A stretch of 64,000 nt of DNA. Origin: Nitrosopumilus sp. (GTDB lineage: Archaea; Thermoproteota; Nitrososphaeria; Nitrososphaerales; Nitrosopumilaceae). Each line of letters begins with the position of its first letter. The stretch's first letter is position 1. The notes beneath the pieces were generated by a model, which worked only from the letters and a program-made list of their open reading frames with translations, made no database searches and had not been told where the DNA came from. Shown here piece after piece: positions 40,027 through 61,506 of this stretch. A program made the position numbers and the translations under genes. The stretch covers positions 256,001 to 320,000 of the forward strand of contig OZ242041.1 in NCBI GenBank assembly GCA_965205215.1. The letters run 5' to 3'.

Positions 40027-40058
40027 TTAATTAAGATGGCAGGGGCAGTTTGTCTGCC

Positions 40059-43630: not shown

Positions 43631-45454
43631 CTAATAGTAGTGATGCATCTGGCGCTGCTCCAGGCCCTCCTGCTCCCAGTGGTTGTGGTTCCTGCCGGGA
43701 TCCTTGTGGGCGTGCACGGTGCCGTCTATATGGCAGTGCGTGTTGTCGATCAAATCCTTGACAAAGACGTCATCCACGTTCAGGACGGCGCATGCGGCCT
43801 CTACGGAGCTCTTGAGAACCTGGGCCTTTACGGCATACGGCTCTATGACGCTGTAGGGCAGGAGGGAGACGTCGCATATGCTCCGGGAAGCATGGTCGAT
43901 CCCGTACCAGCCCGAGGGCGGGTCGGAGACGGCGGCGGCGCCGTTGTCCCCGTCACCGGTCCCGCCGGCATTGTCACCGGCGCGGGTCGTCGCAGCACGC
44001 GATCCCCGGCGGTCTCCGTGCACCCTTGAGCGCAGGAGCGGCAGCGCGTCCAGCGTCTCAATCCCGGCGTTCTCGGCAAGGGTCATTGGAACCGACTCGA
44101 GCGCGTCTGCAAACCTTGCGGCCGCGACCTGCGCCTTCCCGGCCATCACACCCGACTCGTCCCTGACCCGCCGCGCGAGAATGGCCTCGCACGAGCCCGC
44201 CCCATACACCAGGTACGGGCATTCGACGAAACCCCTCAGCATGTGCAGCACGTTGAGCGCGGTGCGGTGAAACTCGTCTAGGTACCTCTTTGAGTTGGCC
44301 CGCAAGAGGAGCGTCACGGACTTTGCGTCGTCACGCCCGGACTCGACGAAGAGCATCCTGTCCCCGCCCACGCTCCTCTCGCATACCAGGTCCGCATGCC
44401 CCATCTTCGCTCCTGACATGTCGCGTATGTCCGTGCATGTGACGGCGCCCGTCGCCTTTTCAAGCCACCATATGTCGTTGTGCTTGACCCGCCTCACAGA
44501 GATTATGCCGCTCCTTGCAAGCAGCTCCTGGGCCTCGTCGTCAATCCCCTTGCGGGATATGACCACGTTGGCACCGCTGCCGATCACCCCGCTCACCGCG
44601 CCGCGCACGTCGTCGGACTCCTGCCGCAGGAACTCCTTCATCTGTCCGGGAGAGTCCATCGCAATCTCCGACTCTGTCTTGGTGCGGCTGCGCTCAAGCG
44701 GCTCGCTCACAAGCAGTATCCGGGCGTCGCGCACGGCGCGGGGCATGGCGGCGCTGTCCACGGGCTTGTCGATTACGGTCCCCATTACCAGTTCGGTCTG
44801 CGCCGCGCTGCCGGGCTTTTCCTCTATCTTGACATCATCAGTATGGGCGCGCCCGGAGGACACGTCAGACGTGCAGTATGCGGCGCGTACCAGCATGTCG
44901 ACGATGCCGCCGTTTCCGGCGCCATTGCCCCGGCCATCCCGGACGCGGCTCCCCTCGCAGAGCTCCCCGAGCGCTGTGCCCCTGATGCAGCAGCGCGCCA
45001 GATCACGCATGGTGCGGTGGTCCGAGGCCCTGCCCTCGAACTTTATGCGCCCCAGTTCCGCCAGCGCGGCCTCCAGTCCCGCCTCGTATCCTGCAATGAT
45101 ACTGGCAGTCGGGATGCGCAGGGCGCGCATCTCCCTGGCATTCCTGAGCAGGGCCCCGATCAGCACCGCAGCGGTCGTGGTTCCGTCGCCCACGTGGTTG
45201 TCCACTGTGTTTACCGCGTCGATGACGGCCTTGGCGGCCGGGTGGTCCACGTCAATCTTGCGCAGAAACGCGCCCCCGTGCACGGTCAGGGTATCCTCGC
45301 CGAGGATGTCAACGTACACCTTCATCATGCCGCGCGGCCCGAGCGCCGTTCTAACCGTCCGTGTTACGAGCTCGCCGGCAATCAGATTGTACATCTGCGA
45401 CTCCTGCACGCCGATGCGCGACAGGTCGGGGTTGAATATGTCGGGGTACTTCAT
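43631..45454 (-). CDS. Divergent group II chaperonin (thermosome-like) with His-rich C-terminal tail
   Basis: LGPRGMMK, HPAAK, GDGTTT and LEKATGA motifs; tail THCHIDGTVHAH...NHNH...MHHYY. Confidence 0.88.
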   Translation of the reverse strand: MKYPDIFNPDLSRIGVQESQMYNLIAGELVTRTVRTALGPRGMMKVYVDILGEDTLTVHGGAFLRKIDVDHPAAKAVIDAVNTVDNHVGDGTTTAAVLIGALLRNAREMRALRIPTASIIAGYEAGLEAALAELGRIKFEGRASDHRTMRDLARCCIRGTALGELCEGSRVRDGRGNGAGNGGIVDMLVRAAYCTSDVSSGRAHTDDVKIEEKPGSAAQTELVMGTVIDKPVDSAAMPRAVRDARILLVSEPLERSRTKTESEIAMDSPGQMKEFLRQESDDVRGAVSGVIGSGANVVISRKGIDDEAQELLARSGIISVRRVKHNDIWWLEKATGAVTCTDIRDMSGAKMGHADLVCERSVGGDRMLFVESGRDDAKSVTLLLRANSKRYLDEFHRTALNVLHMLRGFVECPYLVYGAGSCEAILARRVRDESGVMAGKAQVAAARFADALESVPMTLAENAGIETLDALPLLRSRVHGDRRGSRAATTRAGDNAGGTGDGDNGAAAVSDPPSGWYGIDHASRSICDVSLLPYSVIEPYAVKAQVLKSSVEAACAVLNVDDVFVKDLIDNTHCHIDGTVHAHKDPGRNHNHWEQEGLEQRQMHHYY

Positions 45455-45493
45455 TAGCGGTATTACGATAATGATGCGGACAGGTTAAAAACT

Positions 45494-47137
45494 TCAGGCT
45501 CCCTTGCTTGGCACGCCGCCGGGCACGTTGCCGACCCCCTTTGCGCCGCCGTCCTTGCCTCCGGCGCCCTCCCCGCCGTCGCCGCCCGAGTCCTGCGGCA
45601 CTCCCTCAAGCCCCGAGCTCATGAAGTCTTCCCTAAAGTGCCTTAGGTCCTCGCCTGCAATCACGTCCTCCTCGGGCGGTACATAGTCGCGCACGTCGTG
45701 CCTGGCCTTTCCCGGATACCGGTTCTGGGTCGCAAGGGCCACGGCGATGAACACCGCGAACGAGACGACCGGCGGGATCATGGTGTCCAGTCCCGCCCAC
45801 TCCTCGGGCATGGTAAAGAAGAACGACAGCCGCAGGAACGACGCTATCAGGAGGGACGCGACGGCAGCAGGCATGTTTGCCTTCTTCCAGAACAGCCCCA
45901 GGGTAAGCGGGGCAAAGGCCCCCGCGAACATGATGTCAAAGGCCAGCACCAGATAGACCCCGGGGTTGGGCACCAGGTATCCCAGCGTGGTTCCCGCCAC
46001 AATCATGGGGAATAGCGTGACCCTCGTCATCCACAGCAGGCTCTTGTCGCTTGTGCCGGGCTTTCCAAGCCACCTCCTGCGTATTATCCTGTTTACGAGG
46101 TTGCGCGACACGACGCTTGATATGGCCAGCAACCCACCGCTGGCAGTGGACATGGATGCGCCGATCACCCCCATGAGGATGGCCGCGCCCACCGCAAAGG
46201 GCATGTGCAAGGTGCTGAGCAGCGGGAGCGCGAACCCGGGATCCGTGTCACCCGGCAGGTAGTAGAGCGCCACGATCCCAAGCATGCTGGTGGGCACGAC
46301 GGTAAACAGGGTGAGGGCCCCGCCCATGTATGCGCCCCGTCGTGCAGTCCTCGGATCCTTTGAGGCAAACACGCGCTCCATAAAGTCCAGGGCGATGATG
46401 TCGCCCAGCCCCAGCGCCAGTATGGCGCCCCAGTTTATCAGGGCCCCGTTGCCGATGTCAAACAGCCCCGACAGGTCCAGGAACTCGGGCGGCGCGTTCG
46501 CGTATATGACAGCCCACGGGGCGTCTGCAAACCCCCCCGCAAAGTACAGGAATCCGACCCAGAACGCGGCGATTGCAAGATATACTTGGAACAGGTTGGT
46601 GTACGCGGACGCAAACAGGCCGCCTGCGCAGGTATACGCAACCACCACCAGGGCCGAGAATAGAATCCCCCAGAAAAAGTCAATCCCGAACACGATCTCC
46701 AGTATGAACCCGCTTGCGGCCAGGTTCCCCGCGACCAGGACGGTAAAGCTGATTATCATGAGTACGCCGGATATGCCCTCTGCCGCGTTGCCGTACCTCC
46801 TGTAGTAAAAGTCCGGCAGGGTTATCATCGACATCTTGTTGAGGGGCTTTGCGTAGAACGTGGCCGTGATCAGCAGGCACACGCCCAGCCCTATGGGCAC
46901 GACGGCCCCGGCCCAGAATCCAAACTCGAAGACCAGCGCCACGTTGCCAAGCGACGAGTTGCCGTCCACTGCCTGCGCGGCGAGCATCGTCCCGACCATG
47001 GCAAGCGGCAGGCTCTTGCCCGCGACAATCAGCCGCTTGCCGCTCTGCTTTATGAGCCGGCCCGACAGGACGCCGACTACCAGTGTAAGCAGGATAAACA
47101 GTATGATCGCGGCCCCAAAGCCGTCTATCTCCGCCAA
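45494..47137 (-). CDS. Sodium:solute symporter (SSS/SLC5 family), substrate unknown
   Basis: About 13 TM helices; VAGKSLP, TLPDFYYRRYG, ASMSTASG, LGLFWKKAN. Confidence 0.9.
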   Translation of the reverse strand: MAEIDGFGAAIILFILLTLVVGVLSGRLIKQSGKRLIVAGKSLPLAMVGTMLAAQAVDGNSSLGNVALVFEFGFWAGAVVPIGLGVCLLITATFYAKPLNKMSMITLPDFYYRRYGNAAEGISGVLMIISFTVLVAGNLAASGFILEIVFGIDFFWGILFSALVVVAYTCAGGLFASAYTNLFQVYLAIAAFWVGFLYFAGGFADAPWAVIYANAPPEFLDLSGLFDIGNGALINWGAILALGLGDIIALDFMERVFASKDPRTARRGAYMGGALTLFTVVPTSMLGIVALYYLPGDTDPGFALPLLSTLHMPFAVGAAILMGVIGASMSTASGGLLAISSVVSRNLVNRIIRRRWLGKPGTSDKSLLWMTRVTLFPMIVAGTTLGYLVPNPGVYLVLAFDIMFAGAFAPLTLGLFWKKANMPAAVASLLIASFLRLSFFFTMPEEWAGLDTMIPPVVSFAVFIAVALATQNRYPGKARHDVRDYVPPEEDVIAGEDLRHFREDFMSSGLEGVPQDSGGDGGEGAGGKDGGAKGVGNVPGGVPSKGA

Positions 47138-47159
47138 CGCACCTGTTACGGATGCAGAC

Positions 47160-47280
47160 CTATTAAATATTGAAAATTTGATGTAAAGTACGTATTACGC
47201 ATAAAATATTATGTGTATAATACAAATTTATGCATAAAACGTAGTAAATACTAAAAAAAGATAGATTATATAAAGATACA
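47160..47280. promoter_or_regulatory. AT-rich regulatory region upstream of the SSS gene, with palindromes
   Basis: TATA-like at 47160-47167 (minus strand); cataa-aata-ttatg at 47200-47213; perfect palindrome tttatgcataaa at 47227-47238. Confidence 0.55.
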
Positions 47281-47539
47281 ACAAGTGGCGGGGCGCCCCT
47301 GCAGAAAGGAGTACTGCAAGGCGGCCCGCAGAGGCGGCGGCGGGGCTGTGGCTCACGGCATGCCCTTTCTTCCTCCTCCTCCTACTCCCTCCCTTTCCTC
47401 CCCCCCCCCTCCCCGCTAGTACAATACCCGGCGCGTCATCAGGATTCCGCGCCAGAGGCTCAATACTATGAAATGCCCAAGTGCCGGCCAAAACCGGCCA
47501 GAACATCGGCATGCGCCACGAACTGCTTTTAATCTACCA

Positions 47540-47761
47540 ATGCACATCCCGTCTGTGGACAAGCAGTTTGCGGCGGCAGTCATACTGATAATATTCGGTT
47601 TTGCCCTGACCCAGATGGGCGGCGGGGAGCAGGCGCAGGGCGGCGCAGACCAGAGCATGCCGTTTCTGGCGGGGCTTGGGGTCGGGACCATCGCAATTGC
47701 GTCGTTCTGGATAGTGATGCGGATCATATCAGACATCAAGAAGAACCGCACGAGACAGTGA
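47540..47761 (+). CDS. Small two-TM membrane protein
   Basis: Two hydrophobic helices and a basic C-terminus. Confidence 0.6.
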   Translation: MHIPSVDKQFAAAVILIIFGFALTQMGGGEQAQGGADQSMPFLAGLGVGTIAIASFWIVMRIISDIKKNRTRQ

Positions 47762-47998
47762 CTACAGGCGCGGCGACTGCAAGCGTTCGTCGCGCTTGGC
47801 CGCACGCGTCCGCGGTGGCGCGCACTGCAGACGGCGCGCGACGACGCAAGGTTTTGACGGCATGCGCCCGGATCGGTTGGGGCCTTATGCCCACAACTAC
47901 CAGATGCAGGACGCGCCCAAGCGTAAATTAAGCCGGCCGGAACGTTCACTTTTAATATATTCATAAAATAATATAAACGCCAGTACGGTACGCACTGC

Positions 47999-48523
47999 AT
48001 GCCCGGCAGTGGATATTCTACAATCGGCCTCAAGCCGGGCATACTGGCGCTCCTCACAAGCGTCACGGACACGTTTTATCCGGGAATGTTCCTGCCAAGC
48101 ACTCTGATAATTCTGATGAACGAGGTGAGGCTGGGACGGTATACGGTAAGGATGCACGGCCACAGGCTCGACCTCTCAGGCAAGTACAACACGCTGACCA
48201 TACGCAACGACATAAAGGAGTGGATTGACAGCCACCACAAGGAACACATGGAGGAGTACGCGTCAAAATACCGCATAAAGTGCTACTCGCACTTTGTCAG
48301 CTACTTTCTTGCAAACCTGTTCGAGTCAAAGTTCGAGTCGCAGAACGGGATCATACGGCTGCAGGAATCGGACTTTGAGTGGCTTCACTCAGAGTACGAG
48401 TCGCACCGTGCCGCGGCAGCAGGATCCGGGAACGGCAATATGACCTTTGACAGGTTTGCCGACGTGTACGTAAACAACATCCTGCAAAGGATGAGAACCG
48501 CAAAGGAGATCCTCTCTGCCTGA
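47999..48523 (+). CDS. Hypothetical protein with tandem ribbon-helix-helix-like modules
   Basis: Three beta-alpha-alpha patterns: YSTIGLKP, YNTLTIRNDIKEWI, IIRLQESDFEWL. Strong TATA upstream. Confidence 0.65.
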   Translation: MPGSGYSTIGLKPGILALLTSVTDTFYPGMFLPSTLIILMNEVRLGRYTVRMHGHRLDLSGKYNTLTIRNDIKEWIDSHHKEHMEEYASKYRIKCYSHFVSYFLANLFESKFESQNGIIRLQESDFEWLHSEYESHRAAAAGSGNGNMTFDRFADVYVNNILQRMRTAKEILSA

Positions 48524-48527
48524 GCCG

Positions 48528-48782
48528 TCACAGCGGCGTCATGGTGTCGATCAGCCTAGCGTTTGTAACCTGGCAGTCCCTCTCCTGTATCTCGAGGTCC
48601 ACGGTATACTTTAGCCCGTCACGCATAAAGTTCACCTGCACGTCCCACGCCACGCGCGGCCCCTTTTCGGGTATCTGAAACGTCTCGTTGACCCTAAAGT
48701 CGGATATCACGTCGCCGTACAGGGACGTGATGACGCGCTTGGACTCGCGCTCTATGTCCGCCGGCGTGCTTACCGCAACCAT
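48528..48782 (-). CDS. Small conserved hypothetical protein
   Basis: Clean ORF, helix plus beta-strands, TATA-like cttataa upstream. Confidence 0.65.
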   Translation of the reverse strand: MVAVSTPADIERESKRVITSLYGDVISDFRVNETFQIPEKGPRVAWDVQVNFMRDGLKYTVDLEIQERDCQVTNARLIDTMTPL

Positions 48783-48932
48783 GCATGTAGTATGGCGTGG
48801 TATGTTATAAGATTTTTGTCACTGTCGTGTTGTTGCAAATTACACATAATATTCTCGGGCGGGCTGCCTGCGTACAGTACGAATTGCCCGCCGGGCGGGC
48901 CGTGAATTGCGCGTGCGCGCATTCCGCATTAA

Positions 48933-50207
48933 TTATGGCGGCAGTCGCCGGTCATCTTGGCCCTCCCTCTTCCTCCCTTTTGCGGCCCTTTTTTGCGCCT
49001 TTGTGATTTTTTCCACAACCTTGTCCCGGTAGTACTCGGCGGTGCGGTTGCCGGGATCAAGCGAGAGCGCCTTTTCGTACGACAGGAGGGCCTCGGCGTA
49101 CCGCTCCAGCAGGTACAGCAGCTTTCCGCGATAACTGTGCGCGTACACGTACCCCGGATCCGCGCCGATGGCCAGATCGCAGTATTCAAGGGCCTCCGCG
49201 TATCGTTTGCGGTGCTCCAAGATCCAGACCATGCTGCACAGGGCCTTGGGATTGGATGGGTCGGCGCGTATCGCAGCGTCGCAAAAGAACGCGGCCGCGG
49301 CATGCTGCTTTAGCGAGTGTAGCGCGATCCCCTTGCTGTAAAGGGCCCTGACGTTCCTCGGATCGTACTCGAGAATCCTGTCAAGGCACTCGACTGCCTT
49401 GCGGTACAGGCCGGTCCGGTCATACAGGAAGCTCAGGTTGAGGTGGGCCTCGGTGCAGTGCGGGTCGATCCGTATGGCCTTCTCATAGAGCGGGACCACG
49501 TCCTTTGAGGGAAGCCCTGCATAGTCAAGCGTCCAGCCCTTTGCCACGAGCGCGTCCGTGTTCTCCGGGTTCAGGCGCAGCGCCCTTGTGTACATCTCCA
49601 CCGCCTTCTCGTGCCTTTTCTGCCGTGACAGTGCCTGGCCCTGCTCGTACAGGGCAGCAGACTGCATGGCCTCGGCCTTCCTTGCATCGTCCAGGGCCGA
49701 TATGGACTCGGCGTCCCTGTGCATCCGGCTCAGGACGCGGCTCCTGCAGTAGTGCGCCTGCACGTGGTTGCCGCCGCTTCTCGATATCGCTCCGTCAAGC
49801 ATCGCAATCGCCTCGTCGTGATCCCCGAGTCCGCTCCTGCAGAGGGCCGAGTATGCCACTGCGTCGTCATACGTGGCGTCTATTGCAAGGATCCTCTCAA
49901 AGTGTGCAAGGGCCTCCGCGTACTTGTGCTGCTTTTCGAGCGTGAGTCCCAGGCCCTGCAGGGCGTCTATGTTGGAGGGATCGGACTTGACTATCTCTGC
50001 ATAGCAGCGCTCGGAGTCGTCGTACCTTCCCGTCTGGTAGTGTATGCCAGCAATGTGCATCAGGGCGGTCCCGTTGTGCGGGTTTATGCTCAAGGCCTTT
50101 GCGAACCGGGAAGCCGCCTTTGAGAGCTGCCCGTACCGCTCGCACCGGAGTCCCTCGTTTATGTGGCGCCACTCGTTTACGCCGCGTCCCTTTCCTGCAA
50201 ATACCAC
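48933..50207 (-). CDS. Tetratricopeptide repeat protein
   Basis: About 11 34-aa repeats (A...Y..AL.LDP). Confidence 0.9.
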   Translation of the reverse strand: MVFAGKGRGVNEWRHINEGLRCERYGQLSKAASRFAKALSINPHNGTALMHIAGIHYQTGRYDDSERCYAEIVKSDPSNIDALQGLGLTLEKQHKYAEALAHFERILAIDATYDDAVAYSALCRSGLGDHDEAIAMLDGAISRSGGNHVQAHYCRSRVLSRMHRDAESISALDDARKAEAMQSAALYEQGQALSRQKRHEKAVEMYTRALRLNPENTDALVAKGWTLDYAGLPSKDVVPLYEKAIRIDPHCTEAHLNLSFLYDRTGLYRKAVECLDRILEYDPRNVRALYSKGIALHSLKQHAAAAFFCDAAIRADPSNPKALCSMVWILEHRKRYAEALEYCDLAIGADPGYVYAHSYRGKLLYLLERYAEALLSYEKALSLDPGNRTAEYYRDKVVEKITKAQKRAAKGRKREGQDDRRLPP

Positions 50208-50382
50208 GCGCGAACTGGTAGGCGCACGCGCTTATAACTTTGGATGTTGCCGCGCGGGCAGGGCGTGCGCGGACGGCCGTCTTCCATTATACGATCCGGC
50301 GCGCTTTGTCGGCGCCGCGGCGCGCATGCGTACTTTACTTGGAATCTTTATTTATCCACAATGCGTCACATAATTGATTATC

Positions 50383-51498
50383 ATGGGGATGGAATTTTAC
50401 GGTGACGATTACCGGGGGGCCGATGTCGCGCCGTTTGTTGGAATAAACACATTTCTGCACCTGCCCTGGATCAGAAGCCACGCCGAGCTGGTAGATGCAA
50501 ACCCCGACGTGGCGATAATAGGAGAACCGTTTGACTTTGGTACCACGATACGGCCGGGTGCAAGATACGGCCCGCGGGCCCTGCGCGCCGCGTCCACCAT
50601 ACCGTCCCCGCCGTACGAGCGGTTCAACATAGAGACCGGGGCCGACCCGTTTGGCACGTTCAGAACCGTGGACTACGGCGACGTGCAGGTCTCGCCGGGT
50701 GACGTGATAGAGTCACACAAGAGGATGACCGCAAAGGTCAAGGAGGTGCTCGAGCAAGACGGCATCCCGGTCATGCTCGGGGGGGACCACTCCATAACGT
50801 ATGCCAACGTAAGGGCGTTTGCAAAAAAGTACAAGCGGATAGGAATGATACACTTTGACACGCACGCGGACTGCGCGCCGCAGGGCCTGACGGGCTACAA
50901 GTACGACCACGGGGCCCACATACGCCGCATAATGGAGATCGGGTGCATGAAGGGGCGCAACTACTCGCTTGTGGGACCGCGCGGATACTGGCCGGGGCCT
51001 GACCTTTACAAGTGGATGTCCGACCAGGACTTTCAATGGTTTACGATGCTCGACGTGGAGGAGATGGGTATAGACTATATCGCAAAGGAGATTGCGGACC
51101 GCGCAAACGACGGGACGGACGCGGTATACCTGAGCTGGGACATAGACTCGTTTGACCCCGCATACGCCCCCGGCACCGGGGAGCCGGAGCCCAACGGACT
51201 AACGTCCAGGGAGGGCATACGCATGATCAGGCTGCTCTCGAAATCCTTTGACCCGGACCGCTTTGCGATGGATCTGGTGGAGGTCGCGCCGGCGTACGAC
51301 GTCAGCGATAACAGCTCGTACAACGGCGGGATTACCTCTGGCCTTGGCCAGCGGCTGATAGTGGAGCTGCTGGCGGGACTCTCGCTTACAAAGAGGGGGC
51401 TTGAGGGCGGCAGCCCCGTCAGGCCGAGGGACTATCGCGGTACGGGCAACACATACAACTTTGGAAACCCACGGGCGGAGATTCCTGATCGCGGTTGA
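50383..51498 (+). CDS. Ureohydrolase (agmatinase/arginase superfamily), substrate unknown
   Basis: RPGARYGP, GGDHS, HFDTHAD, SWDIDSFDP..APGTGEPE; all binuclear metal ligands present. Confidence 0.92.
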   Translation: MGMEFYGDDYRGADVAPFVGINTFLHLPWIRSHAELVDANPDVAIIGEPFDFGTTIRPGARYGPRALRAASTIPSPPYERFNIETGADPFGTFRTVDYGDVQVSPGDVIESHKRMTAKVKEVLEQDGIPVMLGGDHSITYANVRAFAKKYKRIGMIHFDTHADCAPQGLTGYKYDHGAHIRRIMEIGCMKGRNYSLVGPRGYWPGPDLYKWMSDQDFQWFTMLDVEEMGIDYIAKEIADRANDGTDAVYLSWDIDSFDPAYAPGTGEPEPNGLTSREGIRMIRLLSKSFDPDRFAMDLVEVAPAYDVSDNSSYNGGITSGLGQRLIVELLAGLSLTKRGLEGGSPVRPRDYRGTGNTYNFGNPRAEIPDRG

Positions 51499-52088
51499 CG
51501 GGTAATACGCGCAGCAGCGGCCGCCTGCAGTGCACCATACAGGTAACCGCGCGGGGGGCAGACAGGGACATGGGCCCGCTGACCAGGCGGTACGATATAA
51601 TGGACAGAAACGACGAGGAGATGCTTGCGGCGGCGGCCGACTCAATCCAGAACATGATCGCCGGCAACCGCAGGATAAACATCAACGACGTCATGCTGCT
51701 GTACGGTGCATGCGCGTACTCGTCTGCGGCAGCGGCAGGCCGGCAGGGCTCGTGCATGTCTGCAATCGAGGAGGGGCTGCCGGACATGCTGTCTGACCAC
51801 CAGGTGATGATCGGCGTGCCGGACATGATCAGGCGCCTTGAGATCAGCATCATGGACAGGACAGGCGGCGGCGGCGCGGCAGATGTAGTGATACAGGATC
51901 CAATCAGGCCCGCATCATACATGAAACGGGGATTGAGTCAGGGGCAGTCGTCATCACCATCGTCATCACCATCGTCATCACCATCGTCATCACCATCGTC
52001 ATCACCATCGTCATCACCATCATCGGCGGCGGCATCGCTTAGCAACAGCGATGGCGGCGGCAGGATAATCTCGGGTGAGATGCCATGA
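51495..52088 (+). CDS. Divergent urease gamma-subunit paralogue
   Basis: RININD...LSDHQVMIGVPDMIRRLEI...VVIQDPI aligns with UreA KLNHPE...[19 protein letters not shown]...VTVHDPI in this window. Start and stop overlap both neighbours. Confidence 0.7.
   Translation: MTGNTRSSGRLQCTIQVTARGADRDMGPLTRRYDIMDRNDEEMLAAAADSIQNMIAGNRRININDVMLLYGACAYSSAAAAGRQGSCMSAIEEGLPDMLSDHQVMIGVPDMIRRLEISIMDRTGGGGAADVVIQDPIRPASYMKRGLSQGQSSSPSSSPSSSPSSSPSSSPSSSPSSAAASLSNSDGGGRIISGEMP
51948..52019 (+). repeat. 12-bp tandem repeat x6 (tcgtcatcacca; SSSP)
   Basis: Seen directly in the sequence. Confidence 0.95.
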
Positions 52089-52945: not shown

Positions 52946-52976
52946 CGGCGTCAGCAGAAAGCAACAACCAAGAGCA

Positions 52977-53546
52977 CTAGCGGGTCGTAGTCTCCGGATT
53001 GGACGGCTCGGCCCTGCCGCTGCCGCCTCCCACGTTTCCGCGGCCCAGCAGCAGACTGCGCGACTTTAGCGTCTTCCGGATCAGGACGAACCCGAGCGCG
53101 GTCGTAATGGCGCCAAACAGGATGTGCGTCACGTTGGCATCCTCCCCAGTGGACATCATGGTAAAGCCCAGCCCCAGCAGCATCATCAGGCCGCCCAGTC
53201 CGGCAAAGATTATCATTACAAGGGGCAGTTTCTGCGGAGGCCTCGGCAGCTCGTTTTTTGATTTTGGCGCCGTGGGAACGGGAACGGCCCCGTTTGATAC
53301 CGCCTCGTAGCAGACGTGGCAGTAGTTGTGGTGGATGCCGCCCTTGTTGTACGGCTTCATAAAGTAATAGTCGACGCCGCACAGATCGCACTTCCTGGTA
53401 GGGCTTACAATCTTGGCGTGCTTGTCAAACTCCTTGCCGAGCTCCAGCATGCAGGGCCTGCAATAGTAGCCCGGTATGCGCCACATGCGCTGGAACTTGT
53501 ATTTCTTCCATCCAAGGGTGATGCCGCACCCGGCGCAGTGTGTCAC
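52977..53546 (-). CDS. Double zinc-finger protein with two C-terminal TM helices
   Basis: Four CxxC motifs (CAGC, CRPC, CDLC, CHVC) followed by two hydrophobic helices. Confidence 0.75.
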   Translation of the reverse strand: MTHCAGCGITLGWKKYKFQRMWRIPGYYCRPCMLELGKEFDKHAKIVSPTRKCDLCGVDYYFMKPYNKGGIHHNYCHVCYEAVSNGAVPVPTAPKSKNELPRPPQKLPLVMIIFAGLGGLMMLLGLGFTMMSTGEDANVTHILFGAITTALGFVLIRKTLKSRSLLLGRGNVGGGSGRAEPSNPETTTR

Positions 53547-53552
53547 GAGGGA

Positions 53553-55772
53553 TCACGCCCCCGATTTTGCCCCGTCGTCCTTTCCGCTTTTGGCGTCGTC
53601 GCCACCGCTGTCGTCATCGTCGCCGCCACCGCCGGCTTCATCGGCAGGATCATCCTCGACGGCCTCCTGCGCCCCGGATTCCGTGACGACTGCCTTCCTG
53701 CCCCTGGCAACCTGTGCGATTCCATGCCTCGCTTCTATGATGGGTAGCCCAACTATAAAAAAGGTCGCGGCGCTCACCCATGTGACTGCTATGCCGACCC
53801 ACAGAGAGTAGAACCCGATGTCAAACACGTACCCGGAGAAGAACAGCGGCATGGGCCACGCTATGATCAGCACCAAGGTCATGATCCCGCCTCCCTTGAG
53901 GCTGAACTTGAACGCGCGGTTAAGCGTCCTTTCGTCCGCGTCGAGCGCCGCCTTCTCGGCCTGGCTGATGTCCACCAGCTTTATCCTCTCCCTCATTAAT
54001 GCCCAGTCGAACTTGGTCCTGCTTGCCAAGCTTCCCAGGCCCGCGATGGCGCCGCCCGTAAGTATGCCGGCTATGTTACCGAAGAGCATAGAGTAGTTGT
54101 GCCCCAGGCTGGCAAGCGACACCTCGCCCCCGAACTCCGGCAGCGACGCGGCCACGCCGACCCAAGTGCCCAGCGCCACGAAGAGCCCCGCAATCGCGCC
54201 TATCGTGGCGGCGTACTTGTTTGTGCGCTTCCACGTGATCGTCAGGGCTATCGGTATCACGGCAGAGCCGATCAGCACGCCCATCGCCAGGTATACGAAT
54301 CCCAGTGACAGTCCCATGCTCAGCAGTATCACCGCCAGGCCCCCCATGCCCAGGCCGAACCCGATTATGGTGGCGCGCGAGACCTTTAGCAGCTGTTTTC
54401 CCGACGCCGACGGGTTCTTGTACGTCCTATACACGTCGTACGTGATCAGCGACGAGACGGCGATCAGCTCGGCGGATCCCGCCGACGTCACGGCCATGAA
54501 CAGCATGGTCAGCACCATCACGGCGCCTACCTCGCCCATCAAAACCGATGCGGCGGCGGGCACCGTAAGCCCGAGCTGAACCTGCTCTGGCGTCAGGTCC
54601 ACGCCAAGCGCGACGGCCGTGAGGCCCATTGTAGTTGCAAGCGTAAACGGAATGGCAAACCAGCAGGCGCCACCGAGGAGGAACCCCTTTACCGTGGACT
54701 GCGGGCGCGCGGCAATCGCGCGCTGCCAGTACGCCTGGTCCACAAACACGGTGCCAAAGTTGCCCACGATGTTGATCACGCCGAATATCAGACCCCCGAG
54801 GGACGCCATGGTAAGGTAGGCGCCCGCCGCGTTGCCCTCCACCGGGCTTATGCGCGCGGCCTCGACGAGCTTGTCGTACATTCCCTCGATGCCGCCCGTA
54901 ATGGGGCTGATAAAGTAGACCGTGCTGACGAATATCAGTATCACGATGAATATGATTATGGTATGCATGTAGTCTGCAACGAACGTGGCCTTTAGCCCGC
55001 CGACCAGCGTGTATATCATCACGCCTATCGGGATCAGGAACGCGGCAAGCGAGATATCCATGCCGGTCAGCCCGTTGACGACTGCAGCGCCGCCGAGCAG
55101 CAGCATGGCTGTAACTATCATGTTGGTCATCAGGGCGAACACGAGAAAGACCCGGTGGGCGCCGCCGCCGTACCTGGCCCTTATGATCTCCAGGAACGTG
55201 TGGGCGTTGGGCGCCTTGCGCTTGAGCTCTATTGCCAGTATGCCGAAGAGAAGGACCTGTATGGATGCGCCTGCCGCATACCAGAACGGACCGCTTACCC
55301 CGTACTGGTAGGCAACCGTCGACGACTGCAGCAGCGTGGCGGCCCACGTCCAAGCAGATACAATGGCAGCCGCAGTAAGGCCTGTTTTGATCACTCTGCC
55401 AGCCGTGTTGAACCACTCTGAGGTCTGGGAGACGCCTAGGTATCGTTCCTCCACCTTTGTCTCGATCGTGATTACGATCGCGAACACGGCGCCGAGGCCC
55501 ACAACTATGAACCAGCCCCAGCTCTCGTCGAGCACGTCGCCTATCGTGAATCCTTCCGCGATGGCACCGGCACCAAACGCCGGGTTTGGGACGCAGGATA
55601 TAGCCAGTACGGCGACCAGCGCCACTGCCGCAGACGGCAAAAACGCCTGCCGGGACATGATCGCCTTTTTGTTAGCAGCCGCAGCAGACGCAATGGATTC
55701 AAGCGGCGCCACTACTGATGCCGTTATCGTAGAGAGGGTGGTAGTCGCAGGCTGTCCGCGCTCCATGCGCAT
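53553..55772 (-). CDS. dur3: DUR3-type active urea transporter (SSS family)
   Basis: FNTAGR, SAWTWAATLLQSS, GPFWYAAGA, GNFGTVFVDQAYWQRAIAA. Confidence 0.93.
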   Translation of the reverse strand: MRMERGQPATTTLSTITASVVAPLESIASAAAANKKAIMSRQAFLPSAAVALVAVLAISCVPNPAFGAGAIAEGFTIGDVLDESWGWFIVVGLGAVFAIVITIETKVEERYLGVSQTSEWFNTAGRVIKTGLTAAAIVSAWTWAATLLQSSTVAYQYGVSGPFWYAAGASIQVLLFGILAIELKRKAPNAHTFLEIIRARYGGGAHRVFLVFALMTNMIVTAMLLLGGAAVVNGLTGMDISLAAFLIPIGVMIYTLVGGLKATFVADYMHTIIIFIVILIFVSTVYFISPITGGIEGMYDKLVEAARISPVEGNAAGAYLTMASLGGLIFGVINIVGNFGTVFVDQAYWQRAIAARPQSTVKGFLLGGACWFAIPFTLATTMGLTAVALGVDLTPEQVQLGLTVPAAASVLMGEVGAVMVLTMLFMAVTSAGSAELIAVSSLITYDVYRTYKNPSASGKQLLKVSRATIIGFGLGMGGLAVILLSMGLSLGFVYLAMGVLIGSAVIPIALTITWKRTNKYAATIGAIAGLFVALGTWVGVAASLPEFGGEVSLASLGHNYSMLFGNIAGILTGGAIAGLGSLASRTKFDWALMRERIKLVDISQAEKAALDADERTLNRAFKFSLKGGGIMTLVLIIAWPMPLFFSGYVFDIGFYSLWVGIAVTWVSAATFFIVGLPIIEARHGIAQVARGRKAVVTESGAQEAVEDDPADEAGGGGDDDDSGGDDAKSGKDDGAKSGA

Positions 55773-55851
55773 ACGTGTGGCCTGCTTTCCCCATATGCGT
55801 TCAAACCGTATCTCGCCTTATATACAAAAAACTAGTCGATGTCGACTAAGC

Positions 55852-57564
55852 CTAGTACAGGCTGTACAACCTTCCAAGGGACAGGCGCGTCGCCGGTTCG
55901 GCGGTGGCCGGCCTGCCGTCCACCACGACCTCGTAGGTCTCAGGATTGATGCGTATCTCAGGCGTCAGGTCGTTGTGCACCATGTCCTTTTTGCCTATGC
56001 CGCGGCAGTTCTCGACTGGCACCAGCCTCTTTGAGGTCCCAAGGCTGTCCGGAAGCCCGCGGGCAATGGCCAGCTTTGACGTGAACGTGACCGACGTCGA
56101 GTGCTTGGCCGAGCCGAGCGCCCCGAACATCGGGCGGTAGTACACAGGCTCAGTCGTCGGTATGCTCGCGTTGGGATCGCCCATCAGCGAGTACGCGACA
56201 AACCCGCCCTTTATGATCATCTTGGGCTTTATGCCAAAGAACTGCGGTGTCCACACCACGATGTCGGCAAGCTTGCCGGGCTCAAGCGAGCCGACGTGGG
56301 CCGATATCCCGTGCGTTATGGCCGGGTTTATGGTAATCTTGGCAAGGTACCTCTTTACGCGCACGTTGTCGTTGTCGCCGCGCTCGCTGGCAAGCCGCCC
56401 CGTGCTGCGCTTCATCTTGTCGGCGGTCTGCCAGTTCCTGGTGGTAACCTCCCCCACCCGTCCCATCGCCTGGCTGTCAGAGGACATCATGGATATGGCG
56501 CCCATGTCGTGCAGGACGTCCTCCGCCGCTATGGTCTCGCCGCGTATGCGCGACTCGGCAAACGAGAGGTCCTCCGGGACGGAGGGGTTCAGGTGGTGGC
56601 AGACCATCATCATGTCGAGGTGCTCCGCCAGCGTGTTCACCGTGAACGGGCGCGTAGGGTTGGTGGAGGACGGCAGTATGTTAGGCTCCCCGGCCACCCT
56701 CATTATGTCGGGCGCGTGCCCCCCGCCGGCCCCCTCCGTATGGTACGTGTGGATGGTCCGGCCCGCTATGGCCTGTATGGTATCGTCCACAAAGCCGCAC
56801 TCGTTGAGCGTGTCGGTGTGTATCGCAACCTGCGTGTCCGTCTCGTCTGCCACGCGCAGGGCCGAGTCTATGGTGGCGGGAGTCGTCCCCCAGTCCTCGT
56901 GCAGCTTTAGCCCGCAGGCGCCGGCTCCCACCTGCTCCAGAAGCGACTCGGGCCTGGAGTCGTTGCCCTTGCAGAGGAACCCAAAGTTGAGAGGGTATTC
57001 CTCGGCGGCCTCTATCATGCGGTGTATGTTCCACGAGCCCGGCGTGCAGGTCGTGGCCTTTGTGCCGTCGGCGGGGCCCGTGCCGCCGCCTATCATGGTG
57101 GTGGTGCCGTTGCATATGGCGTCCACCGCCTGCTGCGGCGAGATGAAGTGGATGTGAGTGTCTATGGTGCCCGGCGTGCATATCGTGTGCTCGCCGGCGA
57201 TCACCTCCGTGTTCGAGGACACGGTCATCTCGATGCCGTCCATGATGTGGGGGTTTCCGGCGTTCCCGACGCCCGCGATTAGCCCGTCCTTTATCCCGAT
57301 GTCGGCCTTTACGATGCCAAGCACCGGGTCCATGACGATCGCGTTTGTAATCAGCAGGTCAAGCGAGTCCTCCCGCAGGACGCCGCTGGCCTGGCCCATT
57401 CCGTCGCGCGCGCTCTTCCCGCCGCCAAAGACGATCTCGTCGCCGTGCACGAGCAGGTCGCGCTCGATCTCTATTATCAGGTCCGTGTCGGCAAGCCGGA
57501 CCCTGTCGCCGGCGGTGGGCCCGAACAGCTCGGCGTACCGGCGCCGCGGAATCTCAAGCGTCAC
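55852..57564 (-). CDS. ureC: Urease alpha subunit
   Basis: [41 protein letters not shown]. Confidence 0.98.
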
Positions 57565-58025
57565 TGCGACCTGTACCCCCTCTCCGCGGCAAGGCGCAGG
57601 GCCCCGTCCCTCTTCTGGTCGAGCGGCCCGTTCACCAGCCCGCCAAAGCCGTACACCGTCCTCTCCCCGCCGTACGCGACAAGGCTGACTGTGCGCGAGT
57701 CGCCCGGCTCGAACCGGACGGACGTCCCGGCGGGAATGTTCAGGTGGAACCCGTACGCCCTTTGCCGGTCAAAGGACAGGGCCCTGTTTGCCTCAAAAAA
57801 GTGGGCGTGCGATCCGACCTGCACGGGGCGGTCCCCCGTGTTCGTGACCTGCACCGACACGGTGTCCCTGTCCCGGTTGAGTACGATGTCGCCACCGGCT
57901 ATGATGTACTCGCCGGGTATTTCGCGCGCGATCACTGCCCGGCCGCCGCCCCCGTGGTTTTCAATGCGATCCTGGTGGTCGTCGTCGTAATTATCATTAT
58001 TAACATCACCTGCCACCATTACCAC
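57561..58025 (-). CDS. ureB: Urease beta subunit
   Basis: [24 protein letters not shown]; start uncertain. Confidence 0.96.
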
Positions 58026-58070
58026 CTGCCATCATCACAGTCCCCACCACGCAAGCACGACGACACATCC

Positions 58071-58373
58071 TCACTTTGCTATCGGGTCGTGTACGGTCAC
58101 GAGCTTTGTGCCGTCGTCAAACGTGGCCTCCACCTGTATCGAGTGTATCAGATCCGGAACCTGCGGCAGCACGTCGTCCTTGCAGAGAACGCTTCTGCCC
58201 GAGCTCATCAGCTCGGGCACGGTCCTGCCGTCACGCGCGCCCTCCAGTATGTGGTCCGTGATTACGGCGACAGCCTCCGGATGGTTGAGCTTGAGGCCGC
58301 GCTCCTTGCGGCGCATCGCAAGCTGGGCCGCAAGGAACACGTGCAGCTTGTCAATCTCCCGCGGCGTGAGCAT
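58071..58373 (-). CDS. ureA: Urease gamma subunit
   Basis: [34 protein letters not shown]. Confidence 0.97.
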
Positions 58374-58468
58374 CAATATTGAACCTACGTGCGTGACATA
58401 TTTAATAATTGAGGGGGCAGGGGGTGGGCGCAGGCAAAGTATAATTTGACACGCCGGCCAATCACGGC

Positions 58469-59014
58469 ATGCTGGATGTATACACCAAGATAGCGGGCAA
58501 CAAACTCAACGGCGACGAAAGGCGCGCAAGGGGCGGCGAGGAATTATTCGATACGGCCGTGATGCCGAGGGCCGACATGGCAAAGAGCAGGCAGCTTGTA
58601 AGGACAGAGTCGGGGGCCGAGGTAGGGATAAACCTGAGCCGGGGCACGACGCTGCGCCACGGGGACATCCTGCAAAGCGAGAACCAGAAGAGGGGGCCCC
58701 TAATGATCCAGCAGTCCCCCGAAAAGGTCGTCGTGGCAAGATTTCAGGCCCGGGATCCGGAGGACAACCATGGCATGCCATCTGTCAATGATTATTTCGA
58801 GTTATGCCTGGTCATGGGTCACGTAATAGGAAACAGGCACCGTCCCATCTCTGTCAACGGGGAGGAGAAGACCGTGTCGTTTCCGATACAGGACGATTCT
58901 GAACTAGAGACGTTTGAGAGGCTGCTTGGCCAGGCGGGGGGCGACGTCGAACTGAGGATTGCAAGGGAGATCTTTGTGCCGCATACGGGGGCCGACGTGC
59001 ATGGGCACCAGTGA
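58469..59014 (+). CDS. ureE: Urease accessory protein UreE
   Basis: [18 protein letters not shown]-terminal HGH. Confidence 0.9.
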
Positions 59015-59732
59015 CGCGGGAGCGGCGGGGGACGGCCCCGGCGCCTGCGCGCCGGACGATCTTGACGCCCTGCAGATATCAGACTCGCTGTTTCCCACCG
59101 GGATGTTTGCGTCATCAGGCGGACTGGAGCTGATGTTTGCCAAGGGAATGGTAACTGGCGCGCGGGAGCTGTCTGCGCTGTGCAGGGACCTGATCACCCA
59201 CCAGGTCGGCGTTGCAGACTGCGTGGCCCTTGCAAACGCGTACGACGCGGCGTTCCGCAAAGACACGGATGCCATAGAGGAGGTGGATGCCGCATGCTGC
59301 TCTACGAAGACGGTGCGGGAGGCAAGGGACGCGTACGTGCGCTCCGGAGTGCAGCTGTGCAGGTGCGTTGCAGGGTTTTGCGGCGACGCGCGCCTGGCAA
59401 GATACATGGAGTGCATAGATGACGGGAGGGCCTCCGGGGTCTACCCGGTCGCACTGGGCGTGTGCTGCCGCGCGCTCGGGATCGGAAAAGAAAAGGCCGC
59501 GCTGATCATGCTGTATGGGTTTGTCTCAAACATGGCGGGCGCGGCGCTGCGGCTGGGAATGATACATCACTTTGAGGCGCAGGGGATAATTCACGAGCTA
59601 AAGCCCGTCATGCGGGAGGCCGCCGCGTCGTCGGTTGCAAAGGACGTGTCGGAGATGTGGCAGTTCTGCCCGCACGCCGAGGCGCTGCAGATGGCCCATG
59701 CGAGGACTGATGCAAAAATGTTCATTACGTGA
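59001..59732 (+). CDS. ureF: Urease accessory protein UreF
   Basis: QISDSLFPTGMFASSGGLE; C-terminal H......MFIT. Confidence 0.92.
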   Translation: MGTSDAGAAGDGPGACAPDDLDALQISDSLFPTGMFASSGGLELMFAKGMVTGARELSALCRDLITHQVGVADCVALANAYDAAFRKDTDAIEEVDAACCSTKTVREARDAYVRSGVQLCRCVAGFCGDARLARYMECIDDGRASGVYPVALGVCCRALGIGKEKAALIMLYGFVSNMAGAALRLGMIHHFEAQGIIHELKPVMREAAASSVAKDVSEMWQFCPHAEALQMAHARTDAKMFIT

Positions 59733-60424
59733 CGGGAGGACGGCGCGGTATGGCGGAGAGGATACCTAGGATCGGAATAGGCGGGCCCGTGGGCTCCGGA
59801 AAGAGCATGCTGATTGAGCGCGTGGTGCCCGTGCTGGCGGGCCGCGGATACAGCGTGAGCATAATATCAAACGACGTCATATCAAAGGAGGACGCGGACC
59901 GCATGAGATCCAACCTGGCCACGGAGCGCGGCCTGCTGCCGGAGAACTTGGTCGTGGGGCTGGCGACTGGCGGGTGCCCGCACACGGCCGTGAGGGAGGA
60001 TCCGTCAATGAACATATCGGTAATAGAGGACATTGAAAGGGAGCACCCCGAGCTGGACCTCATAATAATAGAGAGCGGCGGCGACAACATAACCACCACG
60101 TTCAGCCCGCTGCTTGCAGACTACTTCATCTACATCGTAGACGTGGCCGGCGGCGACAAGTATCCAAGGAAGGGCGGGCTTGGAATAACGAGCTGCGACC
60201 TGCTTGTGATAAACAAGACGGACCTGGCGCCCATGGTGGGCGCGGACCTGGAGGTGATGAGAACAGACGCCCTGAGAATCAGGGGCGCGGAAAAGCCGTT
60301 TGTCTTTGTCAACTGCATGGCCGACCGGGGCATACCGGAAGTGGCAGACCTGATAGTAAGAAACCTGCTATTCGGGGAGCCCCCGAAGAGCCGCGCCGCA
60401 AAGGTGGGGGAAGTGCAGCAGTGA
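59729..60424 (+). CDS. ureG: Urease accessory GTPase UreG
   Basis: GPVGSGKS, TGGCPH, ESGGDN, NKTD. Confidence 0.97.
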   Translation: MTGGRRGMAERIPRIGIGGPVGSGKSMLIERVVPVLAGRGYSVSIISNDVISKEDADRMRSNLATERGLLPENLVVGLATGGCPHTAVREDPSMNISVIEDIEREHPELDLIIIESGGDNITTTFSPLLADYFIYIVDVAGGDKYPRKGGLGITSCDLLVINKTDLAPMVGADLEVMRTDALRIRGAEKPFVFVNCMADRGIPEVADLIVRNLLFGEPPKSRAAKVGEVQQ

Positions 60425-61506
60425 TGGGAACCGCGGCCGGCGCGGCAGCGGCGGCAGGAGGAGGAGTGGGAGCCGCGCCGCAAAGGTACGATGAGGAGGC
60501 TGCCGCGGACGTCATACCGCCCCACAGGACGGGCATGGAGGGGCGCCTGCACCTGTCGCTACTATACGACGGCGCCAGGACGATAATCGCGGGCCAGCGC
60601 GCAGAGCCGCCCCTGGCAGTACAGAGGGCGCTCTACTGCGAGCAGTCCCTGCCAGGCATGGCGTACGTGTATGTCACGTCCACGTCCGGCGGCATACTCC
60701 AGGGCGACAGGCACGTCACGAGGTTTGACCTGGGCGGCGGGGCGAGGGCCCACATCACGACGCAGGGGGCCACCAGAATATACGGGACAAGAGACTCGGC
60801 GCGTACAGAAAAGAAGCCGGCGGCGCGGGCGTCACTCCGCATGTCGCTGGGCGAGAGCTCGTATCTGGAGTACATGCCCGACCAGATAATCCCGTACGCG
60901 GGATCCAGGTTCCGGCAGGATGCGGTCATGTCCGTACACGAGACTGCAACCCTGGTGTACGCGGAGACCGTATCGCCCGGGCGCGTCGGAATGGGCGAGT
61001 CGTTTGAGTACGAGTCGTGCAGCCTGAGGATGCGCGTCACGGACCAGAACGGGAGGTTCAGGTTTGTGGATGCGGCAAGGATGGAGCCGCGAGTTGCGTC
61101 CTTGCAGTCATCGCCATCGGCATCATCGCAAACGGCATATTCTTTATCACCATCCTCACAACCATCAGATTCAACACAAGCATCGTCTTTACAGCCACAA
61201 TCCGCAGATGAGCCAGAACTGGACATAAAGTCGTTTGGAATAATGGAAGAATATGATGTAGTATCCTCGTTGTATGTAATTACAGAAAAAAAGCATGTGG
61301 AAAGCCTGCAAAAAGGCATGGACGGCGCCATACTCCAGCACGGCGAGGTTGCAGGCGGCGCCACCGTAATGAGCGGCAACACTGGGGTGATGGCAAGGCT
61401 GCTCGGGCGCGACACCGAGTCCGTAGGATCCGCAGTAACGGAGGCCGCCGCTTACGCAAGAAAGGTTGTTCTGGGCGCCCCCTTTACCGGCATCAGAAAG
61501 AGCTGA
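60421..61506 (+). CDS. ureD: Urease accessory protein UreD
   Basis: SGGILQGD, TTQGATRIY, LEYMPDQIIP, PGR..MGESF. Confidence 0.93.
   Translation: MMGTAAGAAAAAGGGVGAAPQRYDEEAAADVIPPHRTGMEGRLHLSLLYDGARTIIAGQRAEPPLAVQRALYCEQSLPGMAYVYVTSTSGGILQGDRHVTRFDLGGGARAHITTQGATRIYGTRDSARTEKKPAARASLRMSLGESSYLEYMPDQIIPYAGSRFRQDAVMSVHETATLVYAETVSPGRVGMGESFEYESCSLRMRVTDQNGRFRFVDAARMEPRVASLQSSPSASSQTAYSLSPSSQPSDSTQASSLQPQSADEPELDIKSFGIMEEYDVVSSLYVITEKKHVESLQKGMDGAILQHGEVAGGATVMSGNTGVMARLLGRDTESVGSAVTEAAAYARKVVLGAPFTGIRKS

Follow-up and report, generated by a model that had tools for sequence, protein, structure and literature searches.

A urease-dependent ureohydrolase module of ammonia-oxidizing archaea with a putative role in the use of guanidino compounds

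We analysed a 64,000-nucleotide stretch of DNA (hereafter the window) from Nitrosopumilus sp., comprising forward-strand positions 256001-320000 of contig OZ242041.1 (assembly GCA_965205215.1), a 2.1-Mb single-contig genome (GC 0.56-0.65). Beside the genes for urease and a DUR3-type transporter, the window carries genes for an arginase-family ureohydrolase (UH), a second SSF transporter (SSS2), a thermosome paralogue with a His/Cys-rich tail (Ths), a NicO-like transporter (NiT), a paralogue of the urease subunit UreA, a TPR protein and two small proteins, orf174 and orf84. Our results indicate that these extra genes are one conserved, urease-dependent module rather than a chance local grouping. 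This module is ancient and widely distributed among ammonia-oxidizing archaea (AOA), and its core consists of UH, SSS2 and the tailed chaperonin. Taken as a whole, we consider it reasonably probable that the module serves the uptake of a guanidino compound and its hydrolysis to urea, from which urease would release ammonia.

Conservation of the module and its dependence on urease

Co-occurrence was scored in 201 genomes of the family to which the window belongs. UH orthologues of 77-98% identity were found in 73 genomes and were sharply separated from a paralogue of 30-38% identity that is present in most genomes. UreC was detected in 99 genomes, together with UH in 71 and alone in 28, several of which are closed; neither protein was found in 100 genomes. 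Two genomes contained UH without urease, and these are 76% and 85% complete. The association between UH and UreC gave a Fisher value of 3e-28, the significance of which is overstated, as are our other Fisher values, since related genomes are not independent. SSS2 was present in 70 of the 73 UH-positive genomes, in one urease-only genome (60% complete) and in none of the 100 genomes with neither gene. The tail of Ths, searched for with a 55-residue query, was found in 70/73, 4/28 and 1/100 genomes of these three classes, respectively. Of the four urease-only genomes with a tail match, three are at most 84% complete, while the fourth is closed and retains only a 64-residue remnant. These results indicate that the module needs urease, that urease does not need the module, and that both SSS2 and the tail of the chaperonin track UH rather than urease. 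The NiT family was found in 60/73, 6/28 and 26/100 genomes, respectively; the last figure rules out that NiT is exclusive to the module, and its link with UH is statistical. The sample includes two unpublished genomes, G092 (scored positive for UH, UreC, NiT, the Ths tail and SSS2) and G093 (scored without UH and without urease); removing them shifts each count by one, and no claim depends on either.

The same relationship was apparent at the genus level. The module occurred in 18 of 27 genera, all 18 of which are urease-positive, and in none of the six urease-less genera, while three genera have urease without the module. The same patchy pattern recurs inside many genera, and the module is present in approximately 72% (71/99) of the urease-positive family genomes sampled.

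Three genomic arrangements in this sample deserve mention in their own right. A closed, urease-positive genome without UH or SSS2 (G100) keeps a NiT gene with an adjacent 64-residue remnant of the chaperonin tail (G100:C1:333793-333954, 332619-333296), which looks like the decay of a former module. A close relative of the window has a second NiT copy that adjoins ureC and is broken by one TGA codon (G016:C12:5616-6398). In another close relative, genome G039, whose UreC is 98% identical to that of the window, NiT adjoins ureC (G039:C6:4018-4869), and UH was not found in the genome.

Synteny was examined in about 20 kb around UH from 20 genomes representing many genera of the window's family, onto which the window proteins were mapped by tblastn. 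Ths, SSS2, orf174, orf84, TPR and UH were encoded together in all 20 loci, mostly with the UreA paralogue and NiT, in DNA with GC contents ranging from 0.32 to 0.70; urease adjoined the module in only some of them. A search at the order level retrieved UH orthologues of 72-83% identity from two further families, f15 (20/40 genomes) and f4 (4/9), and found none in 111 genomes of 17 other families of the order. Module genes recurred in all 13 loci taken from f15 and f4, with urease adjacent in nine. In f4, the layout is SSS2-TPR-orf84 followed by UH-(UreA paralogue)-NiT-ureABCEFGD in one direction. The extra genes are therefore syntenic in 33/33 loci of three AOA families, an arrangement far beyond chance, with the tailed Ths not found in the three f4 loci. 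One variant locus (L036, of the g11/g6 type) has a UH of 81% identity, an SSS2 of about 50% identity and no NiT, and it carries genes for a universal stress protein and a ParB-like protein between SSS2 and orf174 (13530-14777).

A reading of the window made from its sequence alone had grouped the SSS, chaperonin, ureohydrolase, UreA-like and Ni-transporter genes with urease in one extended island. Our comparison strongly supports this grouping, since these genes occur as a set whose distribution is nested inside that of urease. That reading had also considered the substrate to be possibly host-derived. The distribution argues against this proposal, since the module is found in 73 of the 201 family genomes and in two further AOA families, and contigs with UH homologues are named Nitrososphaeraceae, Nitrosocosmicus, Nitrosotalea and Marine Group I. 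A symbiont-specific module is thus ruled out.

It is conceivable that the module mainly serves urease maturation and nickel supply through the chaperonin, the UreA paralogue and the Ni transporter, with UH as a passenger. The proximity of the module to urease in many loci, the presence of the UreA paralogue and the NicO-like transporter, and the NiT gene near ureC in G039, where UH was not found, would fit such a function. However, the tailed chaperonin is absent from 24 of the 28 urease-only genomes and NiT from 22, closed genomes included, indicating that urease does not need them. Moreover, the tail is fused to UH in f4, and no member of the module is as conserved as UH, whose 72-98% identity across three AOA families indicates strong constraint. 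We therefore regard this explanation as very improbable.

The Glu-type ureohydrolase and its putative substrate

UH clearly belongs to the arginase/ureohydrolase superfamily (PF00491, 274 bits against a cut-off of 22). Its metal-site motifs GGDHS, DxHxD and DxDxxDP are intact, and the metal ligands D135, H136, D159, H161, D163, D253 and D255 are invariant in 26/26 AOA sequences. Among solved structures, the best match was guanidinobutyrase (3nio, 180 bits), followed by the guanidinases of N. inopinata (9fek, 166 bits) and Synechocystis (7esr, 164 bits), then by guanidinopropionase and proclavaminate amidinohydrolase (PAH), with agmatinases at about 126 bits. Guanidinobutyrase (GbuA), guanidinopropionase (GpuA) and PAH have Thr at a position where UH has Glu267 (GTGEPEP motif), and this Glu is invariant in 26/26 AOA sequences. 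A search of 5.8 billion proteins returned 109 full-length matches. Glu occupied this position in 72 of them, which are essentially all matches of at least 49% identity (exceptions: one Val and one Thr), and the canonical Thr was found in the 34 matches of at most 46% identity. By this sequence signature, UH represents a distinct "Glu-type" subfamily, which is uncharacterised as far as we have seen.

The nearest Glu-type relatives outside AOA are those of Halobacteria, which are 50-57% identical and have the same Glu signature. Of 45 haloarchaeal loci, 41 have an SSS2 homologue (35-41% identity) no more than 10 kb from UH, and six have urease next to UH. In 151 genomes of the class, urease was present in 11/11 UH-positive genomes and in 32/140 others, a contrast whose Fisher value is inflated by kinship; in a smaller spot check of UH-positive haloarchaeal genomes, urease was found in 5/5. 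Thus, in two phyla, UH is paired with an SSS transporter, and the pair depends on urease. No other observation argues as strongly for urea as the product of UH and for the SSS protein as the importer of its substrate. The only other recurrent neighbours in the haloarchaeal loci are a regulator with AbrB/MazE and PhoU domains, encoded between the SSS gene and the Glu-type ureohydrolase gene (41/45 loci), and a JAB-domain protein (30/45). Many other clusters of haloarchaeal neighbours are shadow open reading frames (ORFs) of GC-rich DNA.

On this basis, we propose that SSS2 imports a guanidino compound, for which guanidino acids such as guanidinoacetate, 3-guanidinopropionate or 4-guanidinobutyrate, or else guanidine or methylguanidine, are candidates. 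The cytoplasmic Glu-type UH would split this compound into urea and a second product, and urease would turn the urea into ammonia for ammonia oxidation and assimilation. UH probably depends on nickel or, failing that, is a metalloenzyme with unusual requirements. The dedicated Ths, with the His/Cys tail pointing into the folding chamber, and the NicO-like transporter would assist in the folding of UH and in its loading with metal. The tandem ribbon-helix-helix-like protein orf174 is the likely regulator, and the UreA paralogue, the TPR protein and the PepSY-like orf84 would be accessory parts.

UH might instead act on an internal metabolite, for instance to detoxify or salvage guanidine or some guanidino by-product, with SSS2 carrying something else and urease serving only nitrogen salvage. 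The nestedness of UH within urease-positive genomes is explained equally well in this way, and guanidine is described as an endogenous bacterial metabolite in excerpts of PMC11410670. In contrast, the retention of the UH-SSS pair in two phyla (70/73 genomes; 41/45 loci) points to a transporter-enzyme couple, and a patchy, accessory occurrence inside genera is more in keeping with a nutritional trait than with detoxification as a housekeeping function. We consider such an internal role unlikely.

Several observations weigh against the uptake and hydrolysis of a guanidino compound as we propose it, or against parts of it. No SSS transporter is known to carry guanidino compounds. Our survey of the haloarchaeal neighbourhoods revealed no downstream catabolic genes beside the UH-SSS pair, nor any other clue to the second product. 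Homologues of the tailed thermosome, the UreA paralogue, NiT, orf174, orf84 and TPR were not detected in the 45 haloarchaeal loci; weak matches to the thermosome family in six of them (24% identity in the one inspected) were taken as ordinary thermosomes. The accessory factors are therefore not intrinsic to UH chemistry, and the existence of haloarchaeal UH without these helpers weakens the idea that nickel is intrinsic to the subfamily. Within AOA, several lineages have no UreA paralogue, and 13 of the 73 UH-positive genomes yielded no NiT, which could serve cobalt or general nickel supply. The residues given for guanidinase in the N. inopinata enzyme are Thr105, His222, Trp313 and Glu344 (PMC11410670, legend of Fig. 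2). In the alignment of UH with 9fek, for which an offset of two between chain index and residue number was inferred, Thr, His and Glu are kept and Glu replaces Trp313, so that UH does not have the guanidinase hallmark. Furthermore, excerpts of PMC11410670 report guanidine-degradation genes in most ammonia-oxidizing bacteria (AOB) of the beta group and in comammox bacteria, and none in AOA; no archaeon was among the organisms tested there, which were five AOB strains and N. inopinata. In the portion of PMC12625717 covered here, guanidine genes were likewise not found in the nitrifier genomes of that study.

A further alternative is that UH is a second agmatinase (SpeB) that makes putrescine, with urease recycling the by-product urea and SSS2 acting as a low-affinity urea transporter. 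Databases name UH "agmatinase", and its best NCBIfam family is agmatinase. In excerpts, PMC6790972 and PMC10753782 treat the arginase-family genes of AOA as SpeB, the latter with two to three speB copies in most AOA. Excerpts of PMC11131427 describe, for soil AOA genomes, an expressed "agmatinase" that forms a cluster with an SSS gene close to urease, and read this SSS-"SpeB" pair as a system of urea transport and homeostasis with a low-affinity SSS protein, an interpretation that belongs with the points just listed. However, UH scored below the agmatinase equivalogs (TIGR01230, 160.5 against 174.3 bits; NF002564, 209 against 302 bits), as did its orthologues (153-158 bits against TIGR01230), while the second arginase-family paralogue of the genome passes TIGR01230 at 197.8 bits, indicating that the role of housekeeping agmatinase does not fall to UH. 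There would be no reason for polyamine synthesis to be limited to urease-positive genomes (71 of 73 for UH), and the lack of SSS2 in 27 of 28 urease-only genomes is hard to reconcile with a general urea transporter. A dedicated chaperonin and a His tail would be unexpected for SpeB, and an invariant Glu stands in place of the canonical Thr. A second agmatinase thus seems quite unlikely to us. The earlier proposal that a ureohydrolase feeds urease with non-standard accessory proteins is well supported as an inference from synteny and co-occurrence. As regards the substrate, UH has neither Trp313 of guanidinase nor a score above the agmatinase cut-off.

The chaperonin tail, the metal and the accessory proteins

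Ths matched Pfam Cpn60_TCP1 with 372 bits, compared with 633 and 622 bits for the two canonical thermosomes of the genome, and fell narrowly under the NCBIfam thermosome equivalog cut-offs (410 against 450 and 393 against 400 bits for alpha/beta). Its C-terminal tail, NTHCHIDGTVHAHKDPGRNHNHWEQEGLEQRQMHHYY, is rich in His and Cys and is almost invariant in 17/17 full-length orthologues of the family. The window copy also has an 18-residue insertion rich in Gly, Asp and Ala that is not present in 17 other aligned sequences. The tail remains recognisable in f15, where it has Thr-His-Thr-His and His-Ser-His elements and ends in HHYY. In f4, a tailed thermosome was found neither in the three loci nor in the four genomes searched (0/4), and the UH of this family has a 45-residue His-rich C-terminal extension in the style of the Ths tail (3/3 loci). 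Two families thus have the tail in trans, on the chaperonin, and the third has it in cis, on UH, a pattern that connects the function of the tail with UH.

The window copy of NiT scored 12.3 bits against Pfam NicO (PF03824; cut-off 27.7, E 0.1), and 12 of 24 orthologues matched NicO at E <= 0.01, the best with 1.3e-6. H34, D39 and H40 (H-x4-D-H) are invariant, as are nine His residues of the loop. An H-x4-D-H motif in an early transmembrane helix is the signature of NicO/NiCoT/UreH proteins. A profile of NiT searched against the PDB matched only His-rich segments of Zn-ATPases.

Within the proposed reading, we put the nickel dependence of UH at about an even chance. Among metals, nickel is favoured by the His-rich ligands, which would suit it, and by the known Ni-dependent ureohydrolases with loading helpers; GdmH, described in excerpts of PMC11410670 as a nickel-dependent ureohydrolase with dedicated loading factors, provides the precedent. 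Alternatively, UH may use cobalt, or manganese with a special folding need. A more far-reaching proposal is that marine, soil and symbiotic AOA share an ancient and hitherto overlooked energy and nitrogen pathway. In it, a Ni-dependent Glu-type UH would be folded and metal-loaded in a dedicated chaperonin with a nickel-binding tail in its chamber, and nitrogen from a widespread guanidino compound, possibly guanidine, would be oxidised via urea. This fuller proposal is possible, although we hold it to be doubtful.

For SSS2, the best NCBIfam equivalog is the Na/proline symporter, at a score far below the cut-off. The protein is 68-87% identical in most loci of the family and about 50% identical in L035, L036 and L041.

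The UreA paralogue aligns end to end with true UreA and has an extra N-terminal strand region. The window copy had no Pfam match and reached E 1e-3 against the NCBIfam urease gamma family, and the copy of L036 passes Pfam Urease_gamma (PF00547; 35.2 against 23.9 bits). It was found by blastp in 25/33 loci, always directly after UH where present, and is missing where the gap between UH and NiT is shorter than 130 bases (L023, L025, L039 and L040). By context, the protein is a paralogue and not a urease subunit, and it might be an adaptor towards urease or the UreDFG machinery. The window copy ends in a Pro/Ser repeat tail (51940-52060) that occurs in none of 14 aligned orthologues, and RNA contigs seem to be cut at this tail (51947-52036).

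The AlphaFold model of orf174 (pLDDT 84) shows a strand-helix-helix unit twice in one chain, followed by further helices. Foldseek against the PDB gave weak top matches to chains of the F-plasmid relaxosome and to DndE (probability 0.95, E 0.07) and none at E <= 0.001, and the Atlas leads belong to the ribbon-helix-helix clan with scores below 0.9. The protein is encoded in 30/33 AOA loci. Given its divergent position next to SSS2, orf174 is a likely candidate for a regulator of the module. The model of orf84 (pLDDT 88.6) shows a helix on a four-stranded sheet, with only weak Foldseek matches in the PDB and none at E <= 0.001, and an Atlas cluster bears the automatic name "PepSY domain-containing". 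It is 54-83% identical across the family and occurs in 28/33 loci. The assignments of orf174 to the ribbon-helix-helix proteins and of orf84 to the PepSY proteins are suggested by the order of secondary-structure elements and by these weak leads. A homologue of the TPR protein, or a shorter TPR protein, was found in all 21 family loci including the window, with weaker matches in f15 and f4; a function as a co-chaperone is speculation.

Gene layout, known systems and significance

The coordinates of the genes are collected below. ORFs, Pfam and NCBIfam confirmed that every gene of the sequence-only reading is present within its span, and orf84 is the only gene it did not list. Two corrections are required. 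The first gene after gatE encodes the chaperonin and not the SSS transporter, and the zinc-finger membrane protein that had been counted with the extra genes is not part of the module, since this protein, the Cys-rich one of Table 1, adjoins DUR3 in L029, L047 and L055. Such a Cys-rich single-pass membrane protein of 53-73% identity is encoded directly downstream of DUR3 in distant AOA, which suggests that it is a partner of DUR3.

Table 1. Genes of the urease region and its flanks, in window coordinates
Feature	Position	Strand	Basis
gatD	40050-41522		above NCBIfam equivalog cut-off
gatE	41519-43534		above NCBIfam equivalog cut-off
Ths, divergent third thermosome (group II chaperonin) paralogue, His/Cys-rich C-terminal tail	43631-45454	-	Pfam Cpn60_TCP1 E 5e-111
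SSS2, PutP-like sodium:solute symporter	45494-47137	-	Pfam SSF (PF00474) 84 bits, cut-off 22.8
orf174, 174 aa, tandem ribbon-helix-helix-like (predicted)	47999-48523	+	AlphaFold model
orf84, 84 aa, PepSY/cystatin-like (predicted)	48528-48782	-	model, weak fold matches
TPR protein	48933-50207	-	Pfam TPR_2 E 2e-49
UH, arginase-family ureohydrolase	50374-51498 (probable start ATG 50383)	+	Pfam Arginase E 1.5e-81
UreA (urease gamma) paralogue	51495-52088	+	full-length alignment with true UreA
NiT, NicO-like (UreH/NiCoT-type) membrane protein, His-rich loop	52085-52945	+	orthologue matches to Pfam NicO
Cys-rich protein, 189 aa, four CxxC pairs, C-terminal hydrophobic segment	52977-53546	-	translation; no significant Pfam match
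DUR3-type SSF transporter, 739 aa	53553-55772	-	Pfam SSF 82.5 bits, cut-off 22.8
ureC, ureB, ureA	55852-57564, 57561-58025, 58071-58376	-	Pfam Urease_alpha, Amidohydro_1, Urease_beta, Urease_gamma above gathering
ureE, ureF, ureG, ureD	58469-59014, 58959-59732, 59729-60424, 60421-61506	+	Pfam UreE_N, UreF, cobW, UreD above gathering
Rad50-like gene	61563-63884		

Judged by strand and spacing, SSS2-Ths, TPR-orf84, UH-UreA paralogue-NiT, ureABC-DUR3-Cys-rich protein and ureEFGD are apparent transcription units, with orf174 divergent from SSS2-Ths and the UH unit divergent from TPR-orf84. The stop codon of UH overlaps the ORF of the UreA paralogue. No shared operator was found by counting 7-mers, a crude method, in the 220-bp regions upstream of UH, SSS2, Ths, orf174, orf84, TPR, ureA and ureE in 21 loci, which gave only AT-rich, promoter-like words. 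The single Rfam match in 43000-62000, to the 5'-ureB small RNA of Helicobacter pylori (57127-57408, plus strand, antisense to ureC; 46.4 bits against a gathering threshold of 40), most likely reflects the conserved coding sequence of the urease alpha subunit rather than an archaeal small RNA. With 224 bits, the DUR3-type protein exceeds the cut-off (184 bits) of the NCBIfam sss superfamily, and its specificity for urea is taken from excerpts of the literature (PMC6790972, PMC12686405). Portions of Ths, SSS2, TPR, UH, DUR3, ureC and ureB are covered by contigs, 90-99% alike, of two sponge metatranscriptome libraries that come from two studies. These contigs are only a weak hint of expression, as DNA carry-over is possible; uncovered parts are uninformative, and depth cannot rank the genes.

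Among known systems, the guanidinases (GdmH of Synechocystis, 7esr/7oi1; the comammox enzyme of N. inopinata, 9fek) resemble UH in their arginase fold (164-166 bits). In comammox bacteria, the urea product likewise passes through urease to ammonia for the nitrifier. According to excerpts of PMC11410670, guanidinase is a nickel enzyme whose loading may need helpers; it is also linked to a dedicated permease. In contrast to guanidinase, UH has the invariant Glu for Trp313, and the transporter is of the SSS type, not APC or ABC. The helpers of the module are a His-tailed thermosome, the UreA paralogue and a NicO-like transporter, while guanidinase has HypA/HypB-like proteins. No riboswitch was found in an Rfam scan of 43000-62000, another difference from the guanidinase systems.

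GbuA and GpuA of Pseudomonas aeruginosa (3nio, 3nip) hydrolyse guanidino acids to urea and an amino acid, and GbuA, the best solved-structure match, shares an HG-x-x-x-RR loop with UH. They differ in the canonical Thr (GTGT) at the position of the Glu, and the UH subfamily has extra C-terminal segments. GbuA and GpuA are Mn enzymes and are not known to have dedicated chaperones. The agmatinase SpeB belongs to the same superfamily; UH differs from it by its score below TIGR01230 and its confinement to urease-positive genomes. HspA of Helicobacter pylori is a GroES protein with a His-rich nickel-binding tail. As with Ths, a general component of the chaperonin machinery bears a C-terminal tail rich in His and Cys, and the organism has nickel enzymes. 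Here, the tail is found on a paralogue of a group II chaperonin subunit and co-occurs with a ureohydrolase rather than with urease.

We found no description of the module, or of the use of guanidino compounds by AOA, in the open literature, which leaves subscription papers and supplements outside this statement. A term search of the available portions of PMC12686405 and PMC7554672 returned no mention of agmatinase, thermosome or chaperonin, and none of nickel in the former.

AOA rank with the most numerous microbes of oceans and soils, and the substrates open to them determine the rate of nitrification. The alternative substrates accepted for AOA are urea and cyanate, and guanidine use has so far been shown only for comammox bacteria. 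If UH releases urea from a guanidino compound, the module would add a new substrate class to archaeal nitrification, and surveys based on ureC would have to be read differently. If UH is a nickel enzyme loaded by Ths, Ths would be the first case of a chaperonin acting as metallochaperone for a particular client. In either case, our study reveals an uncharacterised ureohydrolase subfamily common to AOA and haloarchaea, together with a tractable case of a specialised chaperonin with a putative metal-binding tail. Should the more far-reaching proposal made above be correct, a large share of the "urea-using" archaea of oceans and soils would also be users of guanidino compounds.

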